Positions 2,070 through 13,837 of a DNA stretch of 64,000 nucleotides are shown in pieces. The notes under the pieces are model-generated. The model did not search any database and was not told the origin of the DNA. It saw only the letters and a list, made by a program, of their open reading frames with translations. This DNA comes from Escherichia phage vB_EcoM_SA35RD, in the sequence record OL960577.1, one strand, 5' to 3'. Position numbers and translations under genes: made by a program. Every line of letters starts with the position of its first letter. The stretch's first letter is position 1.

Positions 2070-2528
2070 TTATAGGATAGTAGTGAGCACCTTATATAAT
2101 GATTTGCCCATCACATATTCCCATTGAGAAGGTTTAATTAAAGCGAACGCATCAAATTCAGGAATCTGTCGTCCGTCTGGGAATGTATGATAGGAATTAC
2201 AAGCACTGTTTCTGAATTGCTCGTGCTCTACAGGGATGGTATATAGGAACAGATGAATATTCTTATTGTCTGAGTAATGATGTTCACCTAGGTCTTTCAG
2301 GAAGGCAGGGTCATATTGTGTAAACCCAGTTTCTTCTTCGCATTCGCGAATAGCGGCTTCAATAGGAGATTCACCGGGCTCGACACGTCCTTTAGGAATA
2401 TCCCAGCGATGAGCTAAAGAACCTTTAGGACGAGAACCAGTTACACGCCCCATGAATAATTCTTTATCTTCGGTAAGGAAAATAATACCGGCTGATAGTT
2501 CTTTCACTTTATTTTTCTTACTCATCAT
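2070..2528 (-). CDS. nudE: Nudix hydrolase (NudE/e.1-like)
   Basis: 152 aa; Nudix box GRVEPGESPIEAAIRECEEETG; position immediately upstream of e as in T4. Confidence 0.85.
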   Translation of the reverse strand: MMSKKNKVKELSAGIIFLTEDKELFMGRVTGSRPKGSLAHRWDIPKGRVEPGESPIEAAIRECEEETGFTQYDPAFLKDLGEHHYSDNKNIHLFLYTIPVEHEQFRNSACNSYHTFPDGRQIPEFDAFALIKPSQWEYVMGKSLYKVLTTIL

Positions 2529-2754
2529 CTCGGTCCCATGATTTGGCCATTAATTCGGACATAAATTCTTCAATGCGCGTTTCTTTAGATGGACTTTCAC
2601 TATTAGAGACCGCAAGTTTGTAATCTGCAATAGGACAGAACATATCAAGATCCGTATTAAGGTCGTCTTTGATTTTTTCTTCTGACACATCTTTATCGTA
2701 TGTGTACAGATAACTATCACATGATTCTGATTTAATGTAAATTGCTATACTCAT
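2518..2754 (-). CDS. hypothetical small acidic protein
   Basis: ORF; start chosen at ATG 2754 (MSIAIY), which overlaps the stop of the upstream gene as ATGA. Confidence 0.5.
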   Translation of the reverse strand: MSIAIYIKSESCDSYLYTYDKDVSEEKIKDDLNTDLDMFCPIADYKLAVSNSESPSKETRIEEFMSELMAKSWDRDDE

Positions 2755-3242
2755 CTCAAATTCCTGCATTCAGTAATAAAACATTCAACTTCGTTATTCT
2801 TGGCCTTTATCTTGTCTTTACGTTCCTGTAAACTACTTTTAACAAGATTAATAATGATGCCTACAGTACCTCCACCAATTATACCGCCAATTATACTTAC
2901 GATAGCAGATGCTAATAAGATAGCAATAATATCAACAAAACCGAAAGAACTCACCTTAGTACTAAAAAACCATACCGACGGTACAAATATAATCCATCCT
3001 GTTATCCATTGGCACTTATTGAAAAACTTTTCAAGATCAGCTTGAGTTGTTCGTATTACTTCATCGATAGGTTGATATCCATTAATGTATCTGTTCACGA
3101 TAATACCTGCTGGTTTGTCGATTTTAAATTCTTGGCAAATACGTTTCACTAAGTAGGATGGACATCCTGTCCAATCCACTGAATAGTACGAAATACCTTC
3201 ATTGCCGTCGTCAATATTAGACCAATATGTTTTGTTAATCAT
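2751..3242 (-). CDS. small membrane protein, FIxECR-tail family
   Basis: 163 aa; hydrophobic segments WIIFVPSVWFF and IIAILLASAIVSIIGGIIGGGTVGIII; C-terminus ECFITECRNLR. Confidence 0.6.
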   Translation of the reverse strand: MINKTYWSNIDDGNEGISYYSVDWTGCPSYLVKRICQEFKIDKPAGIIVNRYINGYQPIDEVIRTTQADLEKFFNKCQWITGWIIFVPSVWFFSTKVSSFGFVDIIAILLASAIVSIIGGIIGGGTVGIIINLVKSSLQERKDKIKAKNNEVECFITECRNLR

Positions 3243-3928
3243 TACCAGCCTTCCATAGGGAATTCCAGATAAACTTGGGCATTGACGCGAATTTCATTGG
3301 TAATCTTTTTAACTCGGTCTGTATTACGAGATACACGTCCGAACCAACGCCATCCATTACTAATTGCACGAGAACCAGTGTGCCATGTTTGCCAATCAAA
3401 CTGAAGAAGAGTACGGTCTGGAGCTTCCCATTTCTCTAGTTCGCCTTTTTCGATTTTTTCGAGGACTTCTTTGTGCCACTGGCGATAGATAAGTTCGCCA
3501 TCAGGAATCTGACTGAACTCTGCAGTTCCTGTTGCAAAATGAGTAGGACACACATCAGCGTTAACAAGACCAAGAATATGTTCAGACAAATAGCGAGGAT
3601 TGTCATAGTCAGGTTGTCCTGCAGTAATAAAATGTTGACCAACCGGAATATCCGGGCGTGGTACGTCATCATGGTGATAACCTGGGATAGCAGGATACCA
3701 ACCAGGCATCAGCATGTGGACTCGTGAATCAAATACAACCTGGTCGGTGTTCCAATCATCTGGCAAGTTCATAATGAAAGAGCGAGTAATAGGACCGCCG
3801 TTATTATAAGCAAATTCTAAACTACAGTTGAAGAACATAGGCTCGTTCTTGATTTTATCATTAGAAATACCGCCGGCAAAACCACCTACTGCACGAGCTT
3901 GACTATTAAACACTTTAGAACTATTCAT
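3242..3928 (-). CDS. hypothetical protein, 228 aa
   Basis: Long ORF with SD GAGGAAAA; no confidently recognised domain. Confidence 0.6.
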   Translation of the reverse strand: MNSSKVFNSQARAVGGFAGGISNDKIKNEPMFFNCSLEFAYNNGGPITRSFIMNLPDDWNTDQVVFDSRVHMLMPGWYPAIPGYHHDDVPRPDIPVGQHFITAGQPDYDNPRYLSEHILGLVNADVCPTHFATGTAEFSQIPDGELIYRQWHKEVLEKIEKGELEKWEAPDRTLLQFDWQTWHTGSRAISNGWRWFGRVSRNTDRVKKITNEIRVNAQVYLEFPMEGW

Positions 3929-3929
3929 A

Positions 3930-4235
3930 TTATTTTCCTCGACATTCTTTAATGAAATTTTCTAGATTGGTAGATTCAATAGCTTTTTTACGAGCTTCTG
4001 CGTGTTCTTCTTCGGACAATTTACGTTTATAATTGACCCAGACATTATGGTCGAAACCAGTCGTGGCATATAATAACAATGCTCCAACGAATAGCAAAAA
4101 CGGCGATAAGAATACAAAACCAGGAACACCATCCATATCGTAAGCCTTTTGTAATACTGCAACAGAAAGAGTTGCGTAAAAAGGTGATGCAAGTATTGTT
4201 AAAAGACCAATTCGATTGGTTTCTGTTAATTTCAT
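3930..4235 (-). CDS. small membrane protein, FIxECR-tail family
   Basis: 101 aa; two hydrophobic helices; C-terminus ENFIKECRGK; SD GAGGAG; early promoter at 4267..4296. Confidence 0.6.
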   Translation of the reverse strand: MKLTETNRIGLLTILASPFYATLSVAVLQKAYDMDGVPGFVFLSPFLLFVGALLLYATTGFDHNVWVNYKRKLSEEEHAEARKKAIESTNLENFIKECRGK

Positions 4236-4266
4236 AATATTCTCCTCATGTTTTAATAGGACTACT

Positions 4267-4296
4267 ACTATAACATAGTCCTATCAGTTTGTACAC
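4267..4296 (-). promoter_or_regulatory. early promoter cassette with palindrome around the -10 (PeSL-like)
   Basis: -35 GTGTAC, 18 bp, -10 TATAGT; 8-bp inverted repeat ATAGGACT/AGTCCTAT (4257..4264 and 4278..4285). Confidence 0.5.
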
Positions 4297-4497
4297 TTAT
4301 TTTGACATTTCTTCGATGTCACGACGATACCCATCACGAACTTCACGAAGAGCTTCAAGGCCACACATAGGCTCGATACCAGTAATGTGAACTTGATTAA
4401 TCTGATACTCTACATCTTCTAACTGAGCGAAAACATAACGACGTTCTGCTGCACAACCAGGTTTAGCTTTACCGAAACGTTTATTCAAAGTAGTCAT
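4297..4497 (-). CDS. hypothetical small protein
   Basis: Start at ATG 4497 (MTTLNKRFGK) with SD GGAG, downstream of early promoter 4536..4565. Confidence 0.45.
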   Translation of the reverse strand: MTTLNKRFGKAKPGCAAERRYVFAQLEDVEYQINQVHITGIEPMCGLEALREVRDGYRRDIEEMSK

Positions 4498-4535
4498 TTT
4501 TATATCTCCATTCACTCATTTGTTTTGATAGGTCT

Positions 4536-4565
4536 ATAGTATCAACAACTACAGACCTTGTAAAC
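4536..4565 (-). promoter_or_regulatory. early promoter cassette (PeSL-like)
   Basis: -35 GTTTAC, 18 bp, -10 TACTAT; flanking inverted repeat AGGTCT/AGACCT. Confidence 0.5.
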
Positions 4566-4577
4566 TGTTTTGTGAAA

Positions 4578-5534
4578 TTATTTGAAAGGTTTTACCATAT
4601 GAAAGTTTTGTTTGAAACGCTTGACGTAATCGTCGTGTCCTAAGCTTTGGTACATACTTACTACTTTGCTATAATTTTCCCAAGCGAACTCACGGAACCA
4701 TCCTGATGTGATTGATGTACAGACCTTTTCAAGGGCCATCATAAAACTATCACGTGGATGGATTTTAAAGTCGTTAGGAATCTGAGAACGTTCTAATGCT
4801 AGTACACATGATTCTTCATATACACCGGCCAATTTGACCATTTCTGGTAATGATTCGAACTTCTCGCGTGAGGTCATGACTTCAGAACCATCTTTCATGT
4901 AAAATGTATAAGCCGGACGGTCTGTTAGTGCAATAGCTTCGTGAATAGTATCATGGTCATATGTATAGATGTCATCTTTAAAGAACGCACTTTTAGAAGT
5001 GTCAAGAACAGGGTGAGCATAGTTCAAGGTTTCTTTCTGGCGTTTCAGCATAATTTCAGTAAGTTCATCGTTCAGTTTAACACCTTTACCACGAAGATAC
5101 TGAATATGGTTCATAGTCTTTAAAAAGAATGGATTATTTTTCTTGAAACGATGAGACATCTTAATTGCAAGACATATCTCAGGAGTTGCCCAGTAAAACC
5201 CGTTCAAACGGTCTTTAGTCAAATTTTTCTTGGCGTATTTTAAAAGGTCATAAGAAGACGTGAAATCTTCAGGAGTGAGTTCACCGACTAATTCACGGAC
5301 ACTAGTGATTGCCGGAACAATATATGCTTCAAAATGAGTTTCGCGTCCATTATGGAAGCATTTGAAAACTTGGACATCAGGGTTATCTTGGTGAACATAT
5401 ACACCCATCATTTGATTTTTGAATGCATTCCAAGAACCTTGGTCCGCAATAAAGTCCCAATCACTATTTTTAATAGCGCTAGAATCAATAAGACCGTGAT
5501 AGTGAAGTGCACGAGAACCAATAACTAACATCAT
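4578..5534 (-). CDS. hypothetical protein, possible nucleotidyltransferase fold
   Basis: 318 aa; N-terminal LVIGSRALHYHG...DWDF resembles the GS...DxD motif of Pol-beta-type nucleotidyltransferases (ANT-like); fold call is tentative. Confidence 0.65.
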   Translation of the reverse strand: MMLVIGSRALHYHGLIDSSAIKNSDWDFIADQGSWNAFKNQMMGVYVHQDNPDVQVFKCFHNGRETHFEAYIVPAITSVRELVGELTPEDFTSSYDLLKYAKKNLTKDRLNGFYWATPEICLAIKMSHRFKKNNPFFLKTMNHIQYLRGKGVKLNDELTEIMLKRQKETLNYAHPVLDTSKSAFFKDDIYTYDHDTIHEAIALTDRPAYTFYMKDGSEVMTSREKFESLPEMVKLAGVYEESCVLALERSQIPNDFKIHPRDSFMMALEKVCTSITSGWFREFAWENYSKVVSMYQSLGHDDYVKRFKQNFHMVKPFK

Positions 5535-5562
5535 AATATTTTCCTCGGATTAATTCATTAAC

Positions 5563-5802
5563 TTAAATTTCACGACATGCGATATTATATTCATCCCAGA
5601 GGTCATCATGTGAAGCCTCTACCAATGGAACGATTGTACCGTTTATGTCTTCATTATAAGGGCAAATTGTACAGTGCGCATCTTCGAATCGGATGCCTTT
5701 GTGTTCAGATTTTTTATAACGCATATCGAATATCTTTGCAAACTTTTCACGAGTAATGGTTTTACCAACCACTTTGGTTCCGATACTTTCGTAATAAATC
5801 AT
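5563..5802 (-). CDS. hypothetical small protein
   Basis: Start at ATG 5802 (MIYYES), which has SD GGAG; ends ...NIACREI; early promoter at 5831..5860. Confidence 0.5.
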   Translation of the reverse strand: MIYYESIGTKVVGKTITREKFAKIFDMRYKKSEHKGIRFEDAHCTICPYNEDINGTIVPLVEASHDDLWDEYNIACREI

Positions 5803-5830
5803 TGTGGACTCCATTTGTTTTGATAGGACT

Positions 5831-5860
5831 ACTATAACATAGCCCTATCTTGTTGTAAAC
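5831..5860 (-). promoter_or_regulatory. early promoter cassette (PeSL-like)
   Basis: -35 GTTTAC, 18 bp, -10 TATAGT; inverted repeat GATAGGGCT/AGTCCTATC around the -10. Confidence 0.5.
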
Positions 5861-5864
5861 TGTT

Positions 5865-6062
5865 TTAGCAAGAATAACTAGATGATACCCAGCCTTGAAC
5901 AGTGATACTATTGTGGGATAATGAGATCGCGTCCTGGAGATTCAGACCTGCGTTATCTTCAATCCATAATGTAACTTCTTCGCGTTCTTCTGTTGCAATT
6001 TGGAACAGGTTTTCCAGAGCAGCTACTGCCGTACGTACAGCACAATCTAATTCACGAGACAT
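5865..6062 (-). CDS. small protein, GWVSSS..C-tail family
   Basis: 65 aa; C-terminus QGWVSSSYSC; SD AAGGAA. Confidence 0.55.
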   Translation of the reverse strand: MSRELDCAVRTAVAALENLFQIATEEREEVTLWIEDNAGLNLQDAISLSHNSITVQGWVSSSYSC

Positions 6063-6071
6063 ATTGTTTCC

Positions 6072-6344
6072 TTAGCAAGTGTGAGAAGATGCGACCCAAC
6101 CACCAGTTTCGAGGCTCAGGTTGTAGTCGTATTGGTAAACGTCAGCCCATTCAGCATAGCCATTTTTTGTACAACGTTCAAGATCGGCTTTAAGATGTCC
6201 GGGTGAATGATAGGTTCCACCCATACCGTAAGCTGGATACAAGTCGAATGTTGTGTTTTGTTTATCAGCAATTTCTTTGGCAGCCTCAATAGCTGCATAG
6301 ATTTTTGCTACAGCTTCAGCCAGTTCGGTTTGTTCTTTAGACAT
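6072..6344 (-). CDS. small protein, GWVSSS..C-tail family
   Basis: 90 aa; C-terminus GGWVASSHTC; shares KEIAD...YG.GGTYH core with the next paralog. Confidence 0.6.
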   Translation of the reverse strand: MSKEQTELAEAVAKIYAAIEAAKEIADKQNTTFDLYPAYGMGGTYHSPGHLKADLERCTKNGYAEWADVYQYDYNLSLETGGWVASSHTC

Positions 6345-6353
6345 AATGATTCC

Positions 6354-6659
6354 TTAGCACAACGCAGAAGACGAAACCCAAGCACCTTCAGTAATAACGT
6401 AACCATTACCTTCACGCTTAACATCGCCACCATTATTTTCAATTTCATCTTTCATCCACTGGGATACGATTTCACCCTTAGGATAATAAGTACGACCGCT
6501 ACCATAATCACCTACAGAAAATGATACGGCATATTGGTCTGCGATCTTTGTTGCTTCTTCTTCGATACGTTCAGCTTGATTCAGAAGTTTATAAATTGCA
6601 TCTGAAGCGGATTTGGCATTATTAAACTCTGGTACTTTAATTTCAATAATCTTACTCAT
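6354..6659 (-). CDS. small protein, GWVSSS..C-tail family
   Basis: 101 aa; C-terminus GAWVSSSALC; ATG overlaps the upstream stop (ATGA). Confidence 0.6.
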   Translation of the reverse strand: MSKIIEIKVPEFNNAKSASDAIYKLLNQAERIEEEATKIADQYAVSFSVGDYGSGRTYYPKGEIVSQWMKDEIENNGGDVKREGNGYVITEGAWVSSSALC

Positions 6660-7015
6660 TTTCTACATTCCTTAATAAAGTTTTCGATTGTTTCATTTTC
6701 ACGTCTAGCTAGGAGTTCATTATAACTAATCATTTGAGAAGCGTAAACCTTTTTATTTTTCTTGTTATGGTTTATAAAATCGTAGTAAAAATAGACTACA
6801 GTACAAAATGATGCGATGGATGCAAAGGCTTGGGTATACCGTAAGTCCTGCCATTGGTCTGTGAATCCACCAGTGTTCCCTATAAATCCTAACACAACGC
6901 CGTCAATAAGAAATCCAACTAATCCAAAGGCAAATCCCATGCCAATACTCATAATAAAAATTAGAATGTTCTCACCAAGAGAAGGCCATACGGTTAAGAG
7001 TTGAGGCTTTTGCAT
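6656..7015 (-). CDS. small membrane protein, FIxECR-tail family
   Basis: 119 aa; hydrophobic helices; C-terminus IENFIKECRK. Confidence 0.6.
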   Translation of the reverse strand: MQKPQLLTVWPSLGENILIFIMSIGMGFAFGLVGFLIDGVVLGFIGNTGGFTDQWQDLRYTQAFASIASFCTVVYFYYDFINHNKKNKKVYASQMISYNELLARRENETIENFIKECRK

Positions 7016-7389
7016 CTTATTTCCTTAACGAATTCCATAGCTTCTTCATATTCATACTTTTTAATAGCTTCATCATACTGAGCTTGGGCTTTTGCGCACT
7101 GAACTTTCCATTCTCTTAATCGGGCTCTGTGATGACGGCCTTGGTGCCAATATCCCACCCAATTAATAGGCATTAATAAAAACGGTACAATAAGTGGTGC
7201 GACGAACATTAATGAAAATGCTGCATCAGACGATATAACTTCACTAGAATCTAAAACAGCTCCTATAATCATAAAGATTAAAAATGCTAAAGCTAAAATA
7301 GGGCCAAATAGTACTTCATTTGGGATTAATTTACGCTTGTATTCATACGCCCAGGGCTTACTTGGCATGTATAGGGTTGGCTTTGACAT
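6994..7389 (-). CDS. small membrane protein, FIxECR-like tail
   Basis: Start at ATG 7389 (MSKPTLY) directly after the conserved GAATGTAGAGAAT junction motif; two hydrophobic helices; tail MEFVKEIRCK. Confidence 0.55.
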   Translation of the reverse strand: MSKPTLYMPSKPWAYEYKRKLIPNEVLFGPILALAFLIFMIIGAVLDSSEVISSDAAFSLMFVAPLIVPFLLMPINWVGYWHQGRHHRARLREWKVQCAKAQAQYDEAIKKYEYEEAMEFVKEIRCKSLNS

Positions 7390-7954
7390 ATTCTCTACAT
7401 TCCATAATAAATTGCTCAAGGATTAAATTGTTAGTGAAATTAGGACTAACAACCATAGTTTCATAAAGCGCATCAATAGCACTTAAAGCATCAACTCTTT
7501 TAAGCAAAGGCTTGCCTTCATACATAGTTTCAGAATCGACGATTAAAGTGAAGTAGTATTTTTTATTATTGGCCAGAACTTCTGTATCAATATAAAACAT
7601 GTTAGACCTTAAAAGCTTGTCTCTAAAGCCTACGTAATCATCTGAACGTTCACTGATATATTCCCATTCGGTGTTTAAACAACAAACAGACCACGTAGGA
7701 GCAACGAAATCAGTGAATCTAATATCATGGTCTGCAACTAGTTTAGCAATAGCTCCGATATCATGAATCATAATACCTGGGGCTAATAAAGATTTTCGGT
7801 TATTTGCATATTCAGTTGTCTCATAAGAAGACGACCAGTACCATTTACGTCCAGTTGCAACATATCGTAATGAATCAACTAAAGACGTAGGTGGATTTAC
7901 CTTATCTCGGAACTCTTCGAACATTGAGTCAATATCATTATTTTGGTTTCGCAT
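7358..7954 (-). CDS. hypothetical protein with FIxECR motif near C-terminus
   Basis: Start at ATG 7954 with SD AAGGAG; ...EQFIMECREYVKANPIHAK; 3' end overlaps the next gene by 32 nt. Confidence 0.6.
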   Translation of the reverse strand: MRNQNNDIDSMFEEFRDKVNPPTSLVDSLRYVATGRKWYWSSSYETTEYANNRKSLLAPGIMIHDIGAIAKLVADHDIRFTDFVAPTWSVCCLNTEWEYISERSDDYVGFRDKLLRSNMFYIDTEVLANNKKYYFTLIVDSETMYEGKPLLKRVDALSAIDALYETMVVSPNFTNNLILEQFIMECREYVKANPIHAK

Positions 7955-7973
7955 GTTAACTCCTTTATTATCC

Positions 7974-7995
7974 AAAAGGAGGACCGGGGTCCTCC
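7974..7995 (-). terminator. rho-independent terminator
   Basis: GGAGGAC-CGGG-GTCCTCC hairpin followed by TTTT on the minus strand, just after the stop of the 8004..8597 gene. Confidence 0.6.
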
Positions 7996-8003
7996 GTATT
8001 ATT

Positions 8004-8597
8004 TTATTTCAAAGAGTTAATATATTCTTGTACATCAGCAGAAGTGGTTTCGACACCTGCTGGAGTGCCATTGAACGTTTCAACCCGAGTCAGAGTGTCT
8101 TCGATATCAACCTTAGTCAGTGCAGCGATTTCAATTACATCATCGGCCGTAGAGATACCAAGGGCATTAGCTGCTCGAGTTTCACGAATGTATTCGAGTT
8201 TGATTGCCAGATTCTGACGAGCATCATCAAGTTCAACCACCTTACGAGCAATTTCAATTCGCATAGCGGCATACCCGTCAGCTTTTGTATTAAGTTGTTC
8301 GGCAGTTCGACGATACAGAAGACCAAGCTTAGCATGCATGGTAACATCTTGTCCTTCAGCCAGGAGCTTACGAATTTCACGTTCCTTAGAAGCGGCTTGC
8401 TTGTTCTTTTCAATAACAAGTTCGCGAATACGTTTTTCTTCATTAATAGATTTAACAGAAGCCGTTTTTAGTTCTTTGATTTGGGTAATCAACTTATCTG
8501 CAGCTGCGTTATACTGTTCTTCGACAGTCAGATTTTTAGCCATAGCAGTACCCAGTTTAGTGCGAATGAATTCAACAAGTTTCTTCAGTGTGTTCAT
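8004..8597 (-). CDS. coiled-coil protein, PspA/IM30-like (tentative)
   Basis: 197 aa; heptad-rich and Ala/Glu/Lys/Arg-rich; layout resembles PspA as recalled; early promoter at 8639..8668; terminator at 7974..7995. Confidence 0.6.
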
Positions 8598-9909: not shown

Positions 9910-10374
9910 TTATTTAATTTGTTTAGCAGACCAGATACGGTCTTTAATAAGTTTTTGGATATCTTCAACATACTCAAGGCTATGAGCGTGAGGATTATCT
10001 TTGAAGCTATGTGCTCGTGCCAGTTTCTGGCCTTCTGTTTTGATTACTAAAAGCTCTTTAAGAATTGCTTCATACTTAGAAATAATTCCTTTGGCGATAT
10101 TTTTTTCTTGAGCTGCTTTAGGGTCTGTTTTTGGCGCAGGTGCTTTACCTGTAGCTTTCTGGAACAATTCACCTGATGCAGCTAGGCTTTTAAAAACTCG
10201 GCTAACAGTATTAGCATTAGTAAAACCTTCGGCTTTAAAATCTCTAATAAAACGGAAACGTTCTTCATCAGAGGCGTCTTTGTAAGAATATTTACCTGCT
10301 TGAATTGCTGCAATCGCAGCGGCTTTTACATCTGAACTAGATTGTTCAGTCAAAAATTCAGCGTATGATTTCAT
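9910..10374 (-). CDS. internal-protein-like (CTS-bearing) basic protein, 154 aa
   Basis: Starts MKSYAEFLTE (CTS-like); Lys/Ala-rich; flanked by rho-independent terminators at 9877..9903 and 10419..10447. Confidence 0.6.
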   Translation of the reverse strand: MKSYAEFLTEQSSSDVKAAAIAAIQAGKYSYKDASDEERFRFIRDFKAEGFTNANTVSRVFKSLAASGELFQKATGKAPAPKTDPKAAQEKNIAKGIISKYEAILKELLVIKTEGQKLARAHSFKDNPHAHSLEYVEDIQKLIKDRIWSAKQIK

Positions 10375-11366: not shown

Positions 11367-11874
11367 AATCAATCATTTTAACAGTCGGCAAAACGATTTC
11401 TTCTTCAATATAAGCGAATTCAACACGTTCAACTACACGCAAGAAATCATAGTCGTAGTATTCAGAAGCATAGCCAAGAATATCAATAAGGCCTTTGGAT
11501 ACCTCATCACCTTTCACAAAGAACAGGTCGAATACACGGGCTTCGTCTTCTTCAGATTTATCGCCAAGGTCAACTTCAATACCAAAGACCTTTTTAATGA
11601 ATTCCGGCTGGAGCTGGTCAGAGAACAGTCCTTCAACCAGATATTCGTAGATAATAAGCGAGCAACGACCGAATGGCGTATTACCACAGTAACGTTCGGC
11701 TTTAGTGCTGGAATGACGACTCTTAAATTTCTTCAAGAGATATTTAAACTGTTGGAGCTCATGCTCTTCTACACCAAATAATGTTTTGGTTTTATAGTTG
11801 TCACCGTCATTTTCCCAAGTAGTGACATCAATTACGTAACCCTTAGGAATTGTACTGCCTAAACAAATATTCAT
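11359..11874 (-). CDS. hypothetical protein, 171 aa
   Basis: ORF upstream of the tRNA pair; acidic; no recognised motif. Confidence 0.6.
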   Translation of the reverse strand: MNICLGSTIPKGYVIDVTTWENDGDNYKTKTLFGVEEHELQQFKYLLKKFKSRHSSTKAERYCGNTPFGRCSLIIYEYLVEGLFSDQLQPEFIKKVFGIEVDLGDKSEEDEARVFDLFFVKGDEVSKGLIDILGYASEYYDYDFLRVVERVEFAYIEEEIVLPTVKMIDLL

Positions 11875-12786: not shown

Positions 12787-13074
12787 TTACAGAAGAGTTT
12801 TTGCAATAATTTTAAGCTGAGCTACAGAAATGTGCTTAGTTTTAAACAGTGCAGTCTCTTCAGCCGGAGAGATAACAATAGTAGCGCCATCTTTCTTAGC
12901 AGACCATCCATCCCCTAAGTAAACAGTACCTTTTACTTCTTCGCCGTCAACCAGACTAATCATTGGTTTACCCTCACGTCCTTTATTTGCTTTAATAACT
13001 TCGGAAGTAAGGGTTGCTTCGGTTAGAGTAGAAACGTTAGCATCAGGTGATATAAATTCTTTATAGGTTTTCAT
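12787..13074 (-). CDS. ipI: internal protein I-like (CTS-bearing), 95 aa
   Basis: Starts MKTYKEFIS; sits immediately downstream of 57B as ipI does in T4; promoter at 13109..13138. Confidence 0.6.
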   Translation of the reverse strand: MKTYKEFISPDANVSTLTEATLTSEVIKANKGREGKPMISLVDGEEVKGTVYLGDGWSAKKDGATIVISPAEETALFKTKHISVAQLKIIAKTLL

Positions 13075-13108
13075 TTTATTTCCTTGAGGTCGTTTATTTG
13101 ATAGGATG

Positions 13109-13138
13109 ATAGTAACACGTCATCATCCTTATGTAAAC
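13109..13138 (-). promoter_or_regulatory. early promoter cassette (PeSL-like) upstream of the ipI-like gene
   Basis: -35 GTTTAC, 18 bp, -10 TACTAT; inverted repeat GGATGAT/ATCATCC. Confidence 0.5.
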
Positions 13139-13151
13139 TGTTTTGTGAAAA

Positions 13152-13837
<686 letters not shown>

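Follow-up and report, generated by a model that had tools for sequence, protein, structure and literature searches.

A C-terminal tail on the early accessory proteins e.2 to e.5 of T4-like phages whose coding DNA also serves the start of the next gene

The DNA analyzed here, referred to throughout as the window, is a stretch of 64,000 nucleotides (nt) from Escherichia phage vB_EcoM_SA35RD (sequence record OL960577.1), and our subject is a short peptide, the tail, found at the C-terminal ends of five of its proteins. Every gene in the first 16 kb of the window lies on the minus strand, and this part holds denV, e (lysozyme), nudE, the tail-gene region, and e.6. The five tail genes are sited between e.6 and nudE (Table 1). 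A first-pass annotation had read the region as an array of small, mostly membrane-bound proteins with a common C-terminal tail, and this array is genuine; all five genes are there as claimed, and they are on the minus strand. The tail has the general form Φ(-3)-[E/N](-2)-x-F-[I/V]-x-x-C-[R/K], followed by 0-15 residues that are mostly basic. It is a real and specific feature of well-known but uncharacterised T4 genes, and it is a peptide selected at the protein level in a changing set of early accessory proteins of T4-like enterobacterial phages (e.2-e.5 and their relatives).

Bases 2500-8000 of the window match more than 100 RB69/APCEc01-like Mosigvirus genomes at 95-99% identity, and by sequence the window is assigned to a Mosigvirus, an RB69/APCEc01-like phage of the T4 type. 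We compared the window proteins with a reassembled T4 genome by tblastn. Judged from homology, the tail genes are the orthologues of T4 e.2, e.3, e.4, and e.5 together with one gene found only in Mosigvirus. E-values for the T4 e.2, e.3, e.4, and e.5 groups of PHROGs (2203, 2330, 2604, and 2607, respectively) range from 1e-50 to 1e-94. The gene at 2751-3242 is identifiable as the full-length form of e.2: it matches phrog_2203 with an E-value of 6e-55, its N-terminus matches T4 e.2 with an E-value of 3e-8 (tblastn), and its RB69 name is e.2. The Mosigvirus-only gene, which encodes 101 amino acids (aa), has tblastn matches in 148 records, all of Mosigvirus type; in tblastn against the T4 genome it has no orthologue, and its tail alone finds a match. 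The open reading frame (ORF) of e.4 is open up to a TTG at 7419, and the ATG at 7389 agrees with the T4 e.4 start. The C-terminal stretch of e.4 in longer form is MEFVKEIRCKSLNS, that of e.5 can also be given as EQFIMECREYVKANPIHAK, and T4 e.4 ends in FVKESRCKSQS. Strand and gene order are kept with respect to T4, in which e.2-e.5 likewise lie between e.6 and nudE/e, and the window has extra genes between e.3 and e.2. The synteny comparison that the first-pass annotation had in mind finds the same cluster between e.6 and nudE/e across T4-like loci. In searches of Pfam, NCBIfam, and PDB sequences, neither e.6 nor any tail protein had a match above threshold, and the literature searched for T4 e.2-e.5 contained no description of the tail.

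The strict motif F-I-x-E-C-R has four matches in the six-frame translation of the 64 kb window, and all four are at the ends of tail genes. The number expected from residue frequencies is 0.03; over 300 shuffles the mean was 0.027, and no shuffle had more than 1 match. A sixth candidate of the first-pass annotation, at 5563-5814 (ending in NIACREI), drops out: it has no F-I core, and in CIP9 the orthologue has YNTYCYEI as its end. Four of the five proteins are membrane proteins, as had been proposed, each with at least two transmembrane (TM)-like segments and with Kyte-Doolittle 19-residue maxima of 2.3-2.7; e.5 peaks at 1.56 and is soluble. The claims that the tail codons lie close to the next ATG and that two gene pairs overlap, e.4/e.3 by 22 nt and e.5/e.4 by 32 nt, are also correct. 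In window order, the next ATG stands at 8, 10, 2, -1, and 4 nt relative to the end of the Arg codon. At the e.4/e.3 junction, the e.3 start ATG (7015-7013) takes its A from the end of the e.4 tail Arg codon and its TG from the beginning of the Cys codon after it.

Table 1. Tail genes, tail codons, and the genes downstream of them in the window. SD, Shine-Dalgarno sequence; E-values for T4 are from tblastn.
Feature	Position	Strand	Description
e.2-like gene, 163 aa	2751..3242	-	Soluble N-terminal domain, TM hairpin; tail VECFITECRNLR
Mosigvirus-only gene, 101 aa	3930..4235	-	Two-helix membrane protein; tail LENFIKECRGK; phrog_9798
e.3 orthologue, 119 aa	6656..7015	-	Membrane; tail IENFIKECRK; phrog_2330; T4 e.3 locus, E 5e-20
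e.4 orthologue, 131 aa	6994..7389	-	Membrane; variant tail AMEFVKEIRCKSLNS; phrog_2604; T4, E 8e-50
e.5 orthologue, 198 aa	7358..7954	-	Soluble alpha/beta; tail LEQFIMECREYVKANPIHAK; phrog_2607; T4, E 6e-59
e.2-like tail codons, V-E-C-F-I-T-E-C-R	2763..2789	-	AGG-AA is the SD of the ATG at 2754
101-aa gene tail codons, L-E-N-F-I-K-E-C-R	3939..3965	-	CGA-GGA is the SD (GAGGA) of the ATG at 3928
e.3 tail codons, I-E-N-F-I-K-E-C-R	6662..6688	-	K-E codons AAGGAA are the SD of the ATGA overlap start at 6659
e.4 variant tail codons, A-M-E-F-V-K-E-I-R	7015..7041	-	AAGGAA is the SD of the e.3 start
e.5 tail codons, L-E-Q-F-I-M-E-C-R	7394..7420	-	e.4 start ATG at 7389, 4 nt past the Arg codon
Downstream 78-aa gene (MSIAIY...)	2518..2754	-	ATGA overlap with the e.2-like gene
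Downstream 228-aa gene	3242..3928	-	phrog_1843; start 1 nt past the stop of the 101-aa gene
Gene downstream of e.3	6354..6659	-	W-x-x-S-S-x-x-C family; ATGA overlap with e.3

To determine the occurrence of the tail among relatives, we used T4, VR7, and CIP9 in addition to 31 IMG/VR loci that were anchored on e.6 (55-99% identity). The strict pattern for relatives, F[IV]x[EDQG]C[RK], applied to the six-frame translations of 36 loci, has 92 matches, 85 of which are in long coding-strand ORFs. All 85 lie no more than 15 residues from the stop codon, and none is internal. With a relaxed pattern, the coding strand gave 138 C-terminal versus 8 internal matches, and the long ORFs of the other strand gave 12 versus 11. 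Each of the 31 genomes has 3-7 tail genes between e.6 and nudE/e. In the whole T4 genome the strict motif has three matches, namely e.5, e.3, and the e.2 remnant, and the e.4 variant matches e.4 itself and, by chance, one 28-codon non-coding ORF; the only real genes of T4, annotated or remnant, with a tail match are therefore e.5, e.3, the e.2 remnant, and e.4 with its variant. Within the e.2-like family, nine of nine remote representatives of 50% clusters (27-36% identity) retain the tail. The hexapeptide has no intrinsic C-terminal bias: of the 42 stretches encoding E-x-F-I-K-E-C-R in a DNA scan across IMG/VR, most lie inside unrelated proteins.

Some individual loci merit separate description. 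In T4 e.2 (L002, T4 KJ477684, 7001-7490; annotated length 102 aa), a 1-nt deletion shortens an A-run (A5 versus A6 in locus L008) and shifts the reading frame. In the other frame, the second TM segment and the tail, ending in NNFITECRKLK, are intact directly before nudE. This deletion may reflect mutation, slippage, or an error of sequencing. In one Mosigvirus contig (L006, ~11600-11700), the e.3 ORF has only 27 codons before the tail, and e.3 is apparently disrupted. Another locus (L024) has a tail gene at 12845-13153, encoding a soluble protein of 102 aa that ends in SLELFIAKCRAK, outside the usual block; it lies between nudE and e and is followed by a 29-nt gap. Finally, unrelated large IMG/VR contigs (L038/L045, L049, and L071, one of them 299 kb) have short ORFs that end in ENFIKECRRSF, GFIKECREERADER, and RFIKECR, and these may be chance occurrences.

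The conservation of the tail is at the level of protein, not RNA. The 65 unique tail DNAs use all six codons for Arg (CGT 19, AGA 13, AGG 12, CGA 10, CGC 6, and CGG 1), both TGC (34) and TGT (24) for Cys, and TTT (54) and TTC (11) for Phe. The per-base information content is three-periodic, the three positions of the Arg codon having 1.01, 1.67, and 0.16 bits, and nucleotide conservation is thus dependent on codon position. Conservation is higher in the tail than elsewhere in the protein in every one of the six larger families tested; none of the six shows variation in the F or R column, and five show none in the Cys column. F113 and C117 are invariant in the e.3 alignment although overall identity is 28-36%. 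The fourth position (F-I-x-E) is E in 42 of the 65 tails. The residues that replace Cys (I, V, M, A, and S) are mostly hydrophobic, which points to a role for this position in packing rather than in metal binding or a disulfide.

These data bear on the possibility that the motif is purely an RNA-level initiation or coupling element for the next gene and that the amino acid pattern is a by-product. We examined 124 junctions, counting distances from the Phe codon. The next ATG is usually near, with modes at +20 and +26 nt, and roughly 70% of the junctions overlap. The best SD match is inside or directly past the motif in about two-thirds of them, as such an element would have it. However, the amino acids stay constant although third codon positions vary freely, and the SD is placed variably, within or past the motif. 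The next ATG is found at +17 to +95 nt in all three relative frames, so there is no fixed spacing. The tail is also retained where a 10-29 nt gap lies behind it and where the downstream gene differs: e.2 is followed by the 78-aa ORF in 13 loci, by nudE in 9, and by another tail gene in 2, and e.3 by the WxxSSxxC gene in 13 loci, by e.2 in 4, and by nudE in 1. At the five window junctions we found no RNA structure, folding being weaker than that of shuffles (z +0.24 to +1.83). A purely RNA-level element is thus largely refuted, and we regard it as extremely improbable.

The first-pass annotation had proposed that the motif serves both as protein end and as downstream initiation region. The half of this proposal that stands is that the tail codons carry the SD of the next gene; an initiation role does not explain the motif, which is conserved as amino acids. 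The position of the SD follows that of the ATG. With the ATG at +17 to +22, the best SD starts within motif codons 2-4 (TTAAGGAA, TTGAGGAA, TAAAGGAT); with the ATG at +26 to +28, it starts in the Cys-Arg codons (TGCAGGAA, AGAAGGAA); and at other distances it lies past the motif. Codon choice varies in the same way, and the middle codons of the motif read AAGGA only with an ATG at very short distance. An SD-like tetramer is present in codons 3-4 in 29 of 36 junctions with the ATG at +17 to +22, versus 4 of 65 otherwise, and Arg is AGR in 31 of 33 junctions with the ATG 5-12 nt past Arg, whereas it is CGN in 47 of 60 others. One constraint thus sets the amino acids, and the other, that of the SD, makes use of the positions left free or synonymous. 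This makes the tail junction a clean natural case of dual coding, in which the choice among synonymous codons builds the ribosome-binding site (RBS) of the next gene while the encoded amino acid stays the same. Ordinary translational coupling is similar in its ATGA and longer overlaps, in having an SD in the last codons of the upstream gene, and in its unstructured RNA, but it imposes no conserved amino acid motif on unrelated upstream proteins.

Two other roles for the junction sequence were considered and rejected. The E-C codons (GAATGY) contain an out-of-frame ATG, which in e.3 and e.5 forms an ATG-TAG start-stop pair. We do not regard it as functional because the preference for GAA/CAA together with TGY produces it, no SD stands at a usable spacing, and relatives have TTG, GTG, or CTG in its place. 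A programmed frameshift or bypass joining the tail gene to the next gene was rejected because the downstream frames are inconsistent. In T4, the annotated nudE ATG (L002 7470) is the out-of-frame ATG in the E-C codons (GAATGC) of the e.2 tail. An ATG 15 nt further downstream has an AGGA SD and persists where the first ATG is TTG (L007), so it is the likelier T4 nudE start. Likewise, for the window ORF at 2518-2769, the likely start is 2754 rather than 2769.

A conserved peptide at the end of an ORF with the next start directly after it also resembles the SecM, MifM, and VemP arrest peptides, in which a conserved C-terminal peptide of a small membrane or secreted protein directly precedes another gene. 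A nascent-chain regulatory peptide of this type would act in the ribosome tunnel, where it would influence termination or the expression of the next gene. The majority of carriers are membrane proteins, and 17-70 residues separate the last TM segment from the motif. Against this, some carriers are soluble, so that a TM segment or signal at a defined distance is not found in all members, and the TM-to-motif distance is not fixed. The tail further differs from these arrest peptides in its diverse downstream genes and in the lack of an RBS-sequestering RNA structure that a stalled ribosome could open. The next start would lie within the footprint of a ribosome stalled at the motif, and 0-15 unconstrained residues follow the motif. 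We consider a nascent-chain role hardly probable.

The junctions are also sites of crossover. In the T4-like genome L007, e.2 is precisely absent. This genome is identical to T4 e.3 up to TGCAGGAAA (the tail C-R-K codons) and thereafter identical to the T4 e.2-nudE junction. A crossover within TGCAGGAAA has therefore left L007 e.3 with the KLK end of e.2, coupled to nudE. Similarly, L012-L018 precisely lack e.4 relative to VR7-type genomes, and the crossover is in GAGGTTC(AA/GT)AATG, which is the SD and start common to the e.5/e.4 and e.4/e.3 junctions. The repeats that run from the tail codons through the SD to the ATG thus act as microhomology for gene-precise deletions. Moreover, the T4 e.3 and e.2 tails (CRKIK and CRKLK) are closer to each other than to the tails of their own orthologues.

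Short repeats at gene boundaries of hyperplastic regions that act as crossover sites for precise gain or loss of ORFs are known in T4-type phages as promoter-early stem-loops (PeSLs), which are modular shuffling cassettes (PMC2839356, PMC4122927). The tail junctions share with PeSLs the repeats that flank precise ORF indels between related genomes (L007 lacking e.2 and L012-L018 lacking e.4). They differ in that PeSLs are intergenic and consist of a promoter and a hairpin, while the tail repeat is a coding peptide tag with an SD and a start codon in coupled operons. The tail junctions, being coding and unstructured, have no intergenic early promoter with a hairpin between its -35 and -10 elements. 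Coding junctions can therefore be microhomology for gene-precise cassette loss, which extends the PeSL picture of how hyperplastic regions of T4-type phages are reshuffled.

One could go further and suppose that the junction persists by letting ORF cassettes move, as a coding analogue of PeSLs, with only a slight function for the peptide. The two gene-precise indels with crossovers inside junction repeats and the likeness of the T4 e.3 and e.2 tails fit a recombination linker of this kind. Recombination needs nucleotide identity, however, and synonymous sites drift while the peptide is held. In addition, the crossover that removed e.4 is in the SD-ATG part and outside the F-I-x-x-C core. A recombination linker as the main reason for the motif is, in our view, very unlikely.

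The proteins that bear the tail are otherwise dissimilar. Their tail-less bodies fall into about 15 groups by BLAST, and no comparison among them by hhalign exceeds a probability of 31%. The bodies are of the following types: TM hairpins, an N-terminal domain with a hairpin (e.2), soluble alpha/beta proteins of ~200 aa at the e.5 position, and soluble W-rich proteins of 95-99 aa. We modeled two of the proteins with AlphaFold2 (AF2). The model of the 101-aa protein, from its single sequence, has helices at 5-32 and 40-99, the second running from the membrane through the tail, and in the e.5 model (pLDDT 67) the tail is a helix at 177-192. The tail is thus helical in both models, and the positive-inside rule would place the tails in the cytoplasm. 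Foldseek found no match for the e.5 model in the PDB (best E-value 0.055, TM-score ~0.2). Its BFVD matches were limited to e.5-position proteins, themselves uncharacterised, from T4-like phages of Erwinia, Klebsiella, and Citrobacter (15-18% identity), and from these models the e.5-position proteins of those phages do look like one fold.

Given this common fold, an explanation by descent has to be considered, in which all tail genes come from one duplicated ancestor and the tail, needed structurally by each protein (perhaps for folding or homo-oligomerisation), is simply the end that evolves most slowly, with neither a common partner nor portability. The tail genes are in tandem in one region. 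A weak match links the 101-aa protein to the C-terminal half of the e.2 family (phrog_2203, E-value 0.003; 32% over 69 aa), and e.3 and e.4 align in hhalign with a probability of 21% over 82 columns. Nevertheless, the tail is found on clearly different body types, and the swap of tail ends by crossover is directly seen in L007. Descent alone appears to us an unlikely account.

The reading that we favor, in which we have about even confidence, is a composite one: a portable helical docking or assembly tag joined to a translational-coupling junction. The tail would form the last turns of a cytoplasmic alpha-helix, and most likely it would provide a common docking or assembly handle for early accessory proteins. 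Its hydrophobic face (Φ, F, I/V, and C) may bind one putative common partner, or else sister tails made from the same coupled message. Synonymous and free tail positions hold the SD of the tightly coupled next gene, and the tag-SD-ATG repeats provide microhomology for gene-precise deletions and insertions, so that the tag can pass between gene bodies.

Several points weigh against a portable docking tag. Its common binding partner is putative. Membrane-protein bodies diverge fast, and several of the apparent families may therefore be one old paralogous family that has in part inherited its tail. For the e.5-position proteins, the models do point to a single fold. Both AF2 models have modest confidence (pLDDT 67 and 71) and were made with a shallow alignment or none; the alignments were shallow because word-indexed homologue searches gave only close relatives. 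The hydrophobic moment of the tail 10-mer peaks at helical angles, but a median of 22% of a tail's own shuffles reach the same value. Finally, the contingency tests of codon choice count related junctions, which are not phylogenetically independent.

The tail could instead be a C-terminal stability or timing signal, a degron or anti-degron that sets the lifetime of early accessory proteins through a host AAA+ protease (ClpXP or FtsH). It is strictly C-terminal and exposed, it is found on soluble and membrane proteins alike, and the residues from Arg to the terminus are basic, carrying a mean net charge of +1.9. Basic C-terminal ClpX signals exist, namely those of the MuA type. On the other hand, the terminus itself varies freely, the conserved F-I-x-x-C core standing 1-16 residues away from it, and the tail matches no known degron sequence. 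A stability signal therefore seems to us distinctly unlikely.

Among known systems, the closest analogy to the tail is the capsid-targeting sequence (CTS) of the T4 internal proteins (MKTYxEFIAE). Located at the N-terminus, the CTS directs its proteins into the prohead, and gp21 cuts it off. Both the CTS and the tail are terminal peptides of ~10 residues on many otherwise unrelated accessory proteins, both are in hyperplastic loci of the same genome region, and both have an F-[I/L]-x-E core. They differ in that the CTS is N-terminal and has a known destination, whereas the tail is C-terminal, contains Cys-Arg, and is on early, mostly membrane proteins. The resemblance comes to four residues, which is not statistically testable, and for this reason a gp21 cleavage site in the tail or homology of the tail to the CTS was rejected and the CTS kept as an analogy. 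In the window itself, genes 152-466, 530-790, 1269-1550, and 9910-10374, together with a partial ORF ending at 126 (all on the minus strand), encode an N-terminal CTS of the form MK.Y.EF[IL].E, the CTS-type N-termini of the four complete genes being at 466, 790, 1550, and 10374. These five CTS genes are a diverse repertoire of internal proteins flanking the e region.

Extending the analogy, the tail might be a CTS-like address tag that directs a fast-changing set of early accessory proteins, whether membrane-bound or soluble, to a single machine of the host or the phage, with its coding DNA forming a tag-SD-start cassette. We put this forward tentatively, as possible though on balance doubtful. 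If true, an ORF recombined in at a junction would gain the tag, the coupling, and a place in the operon at once, and the junctions would be a coding counterpart of PeSLs that is present in T4 itself (e.2-e.5). Whichever function the tail has, a strictly C-terminal peptide on ~15 dissimilar protein groups, present 3-7 times per genome, is an experimental handle on a class of accessory proteins.

Two further comparisons gave no relationship. The first-pass annotation had raised superinfection exclusion, immunity, or lysis timing as possible roles of the array, for or against which we have no evidence, and had pointed to T4 Imm, Sp, and rI as proteins for comparison. These and rIII (membrane or periplasmic) resemble the tail proteins in being small early T4 proteins, some with two TM helices, but blastp against the tail proteins gave no similarity (best E-values 0.38-9.6) and none of them has the tail motif. 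A likeness of the tail to the FtsZ C-terminal peptide or to the membrane-targeting helix of MinD type was rejected because the sequences match weakly and the hydrophobic moment does not reach significance.

Several other features of the region were observed. Upstream of the tail genes, e.6 (window 8004-8597) encodes a very conserved helical protein of 197 aa with 55-99% identity across all loci, and a strong hairpin terminator at 7978-7995 separates e.6 from e.5. It is the only uncharacterised phage gene within ~10 kb that is present in all tail-gene genomes; our sample was anchored on e.6. Early-promoter-like repeats (TGTACA/TTTACA ... TATAGT) are found on the minus strand at ~4252-4296 and 5820-5864, and also at 4536-4564. 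They have a hairpin, ATAGGxCTA...TAGTCCTAT, between their -35 and -10 elements and are PeSL-type cassette boundaries (PMC2839356).

A second C-terminal signature is present in the same region. Three paralogous genes on the minus strand, at 5865-6062, 6072-6344, and 6354-6659, encode small acidic proteins (phrog_899) that end in G-x-W-[V/I]-[S/A]-S-S-x-x-C, with Cys always the last residue before the stop codon. Genes of this family are often directly downstream of a tail gene, and there are 1-5 copies (mostly 2-5) in nearly every non-T4 locus and 0 in T4.

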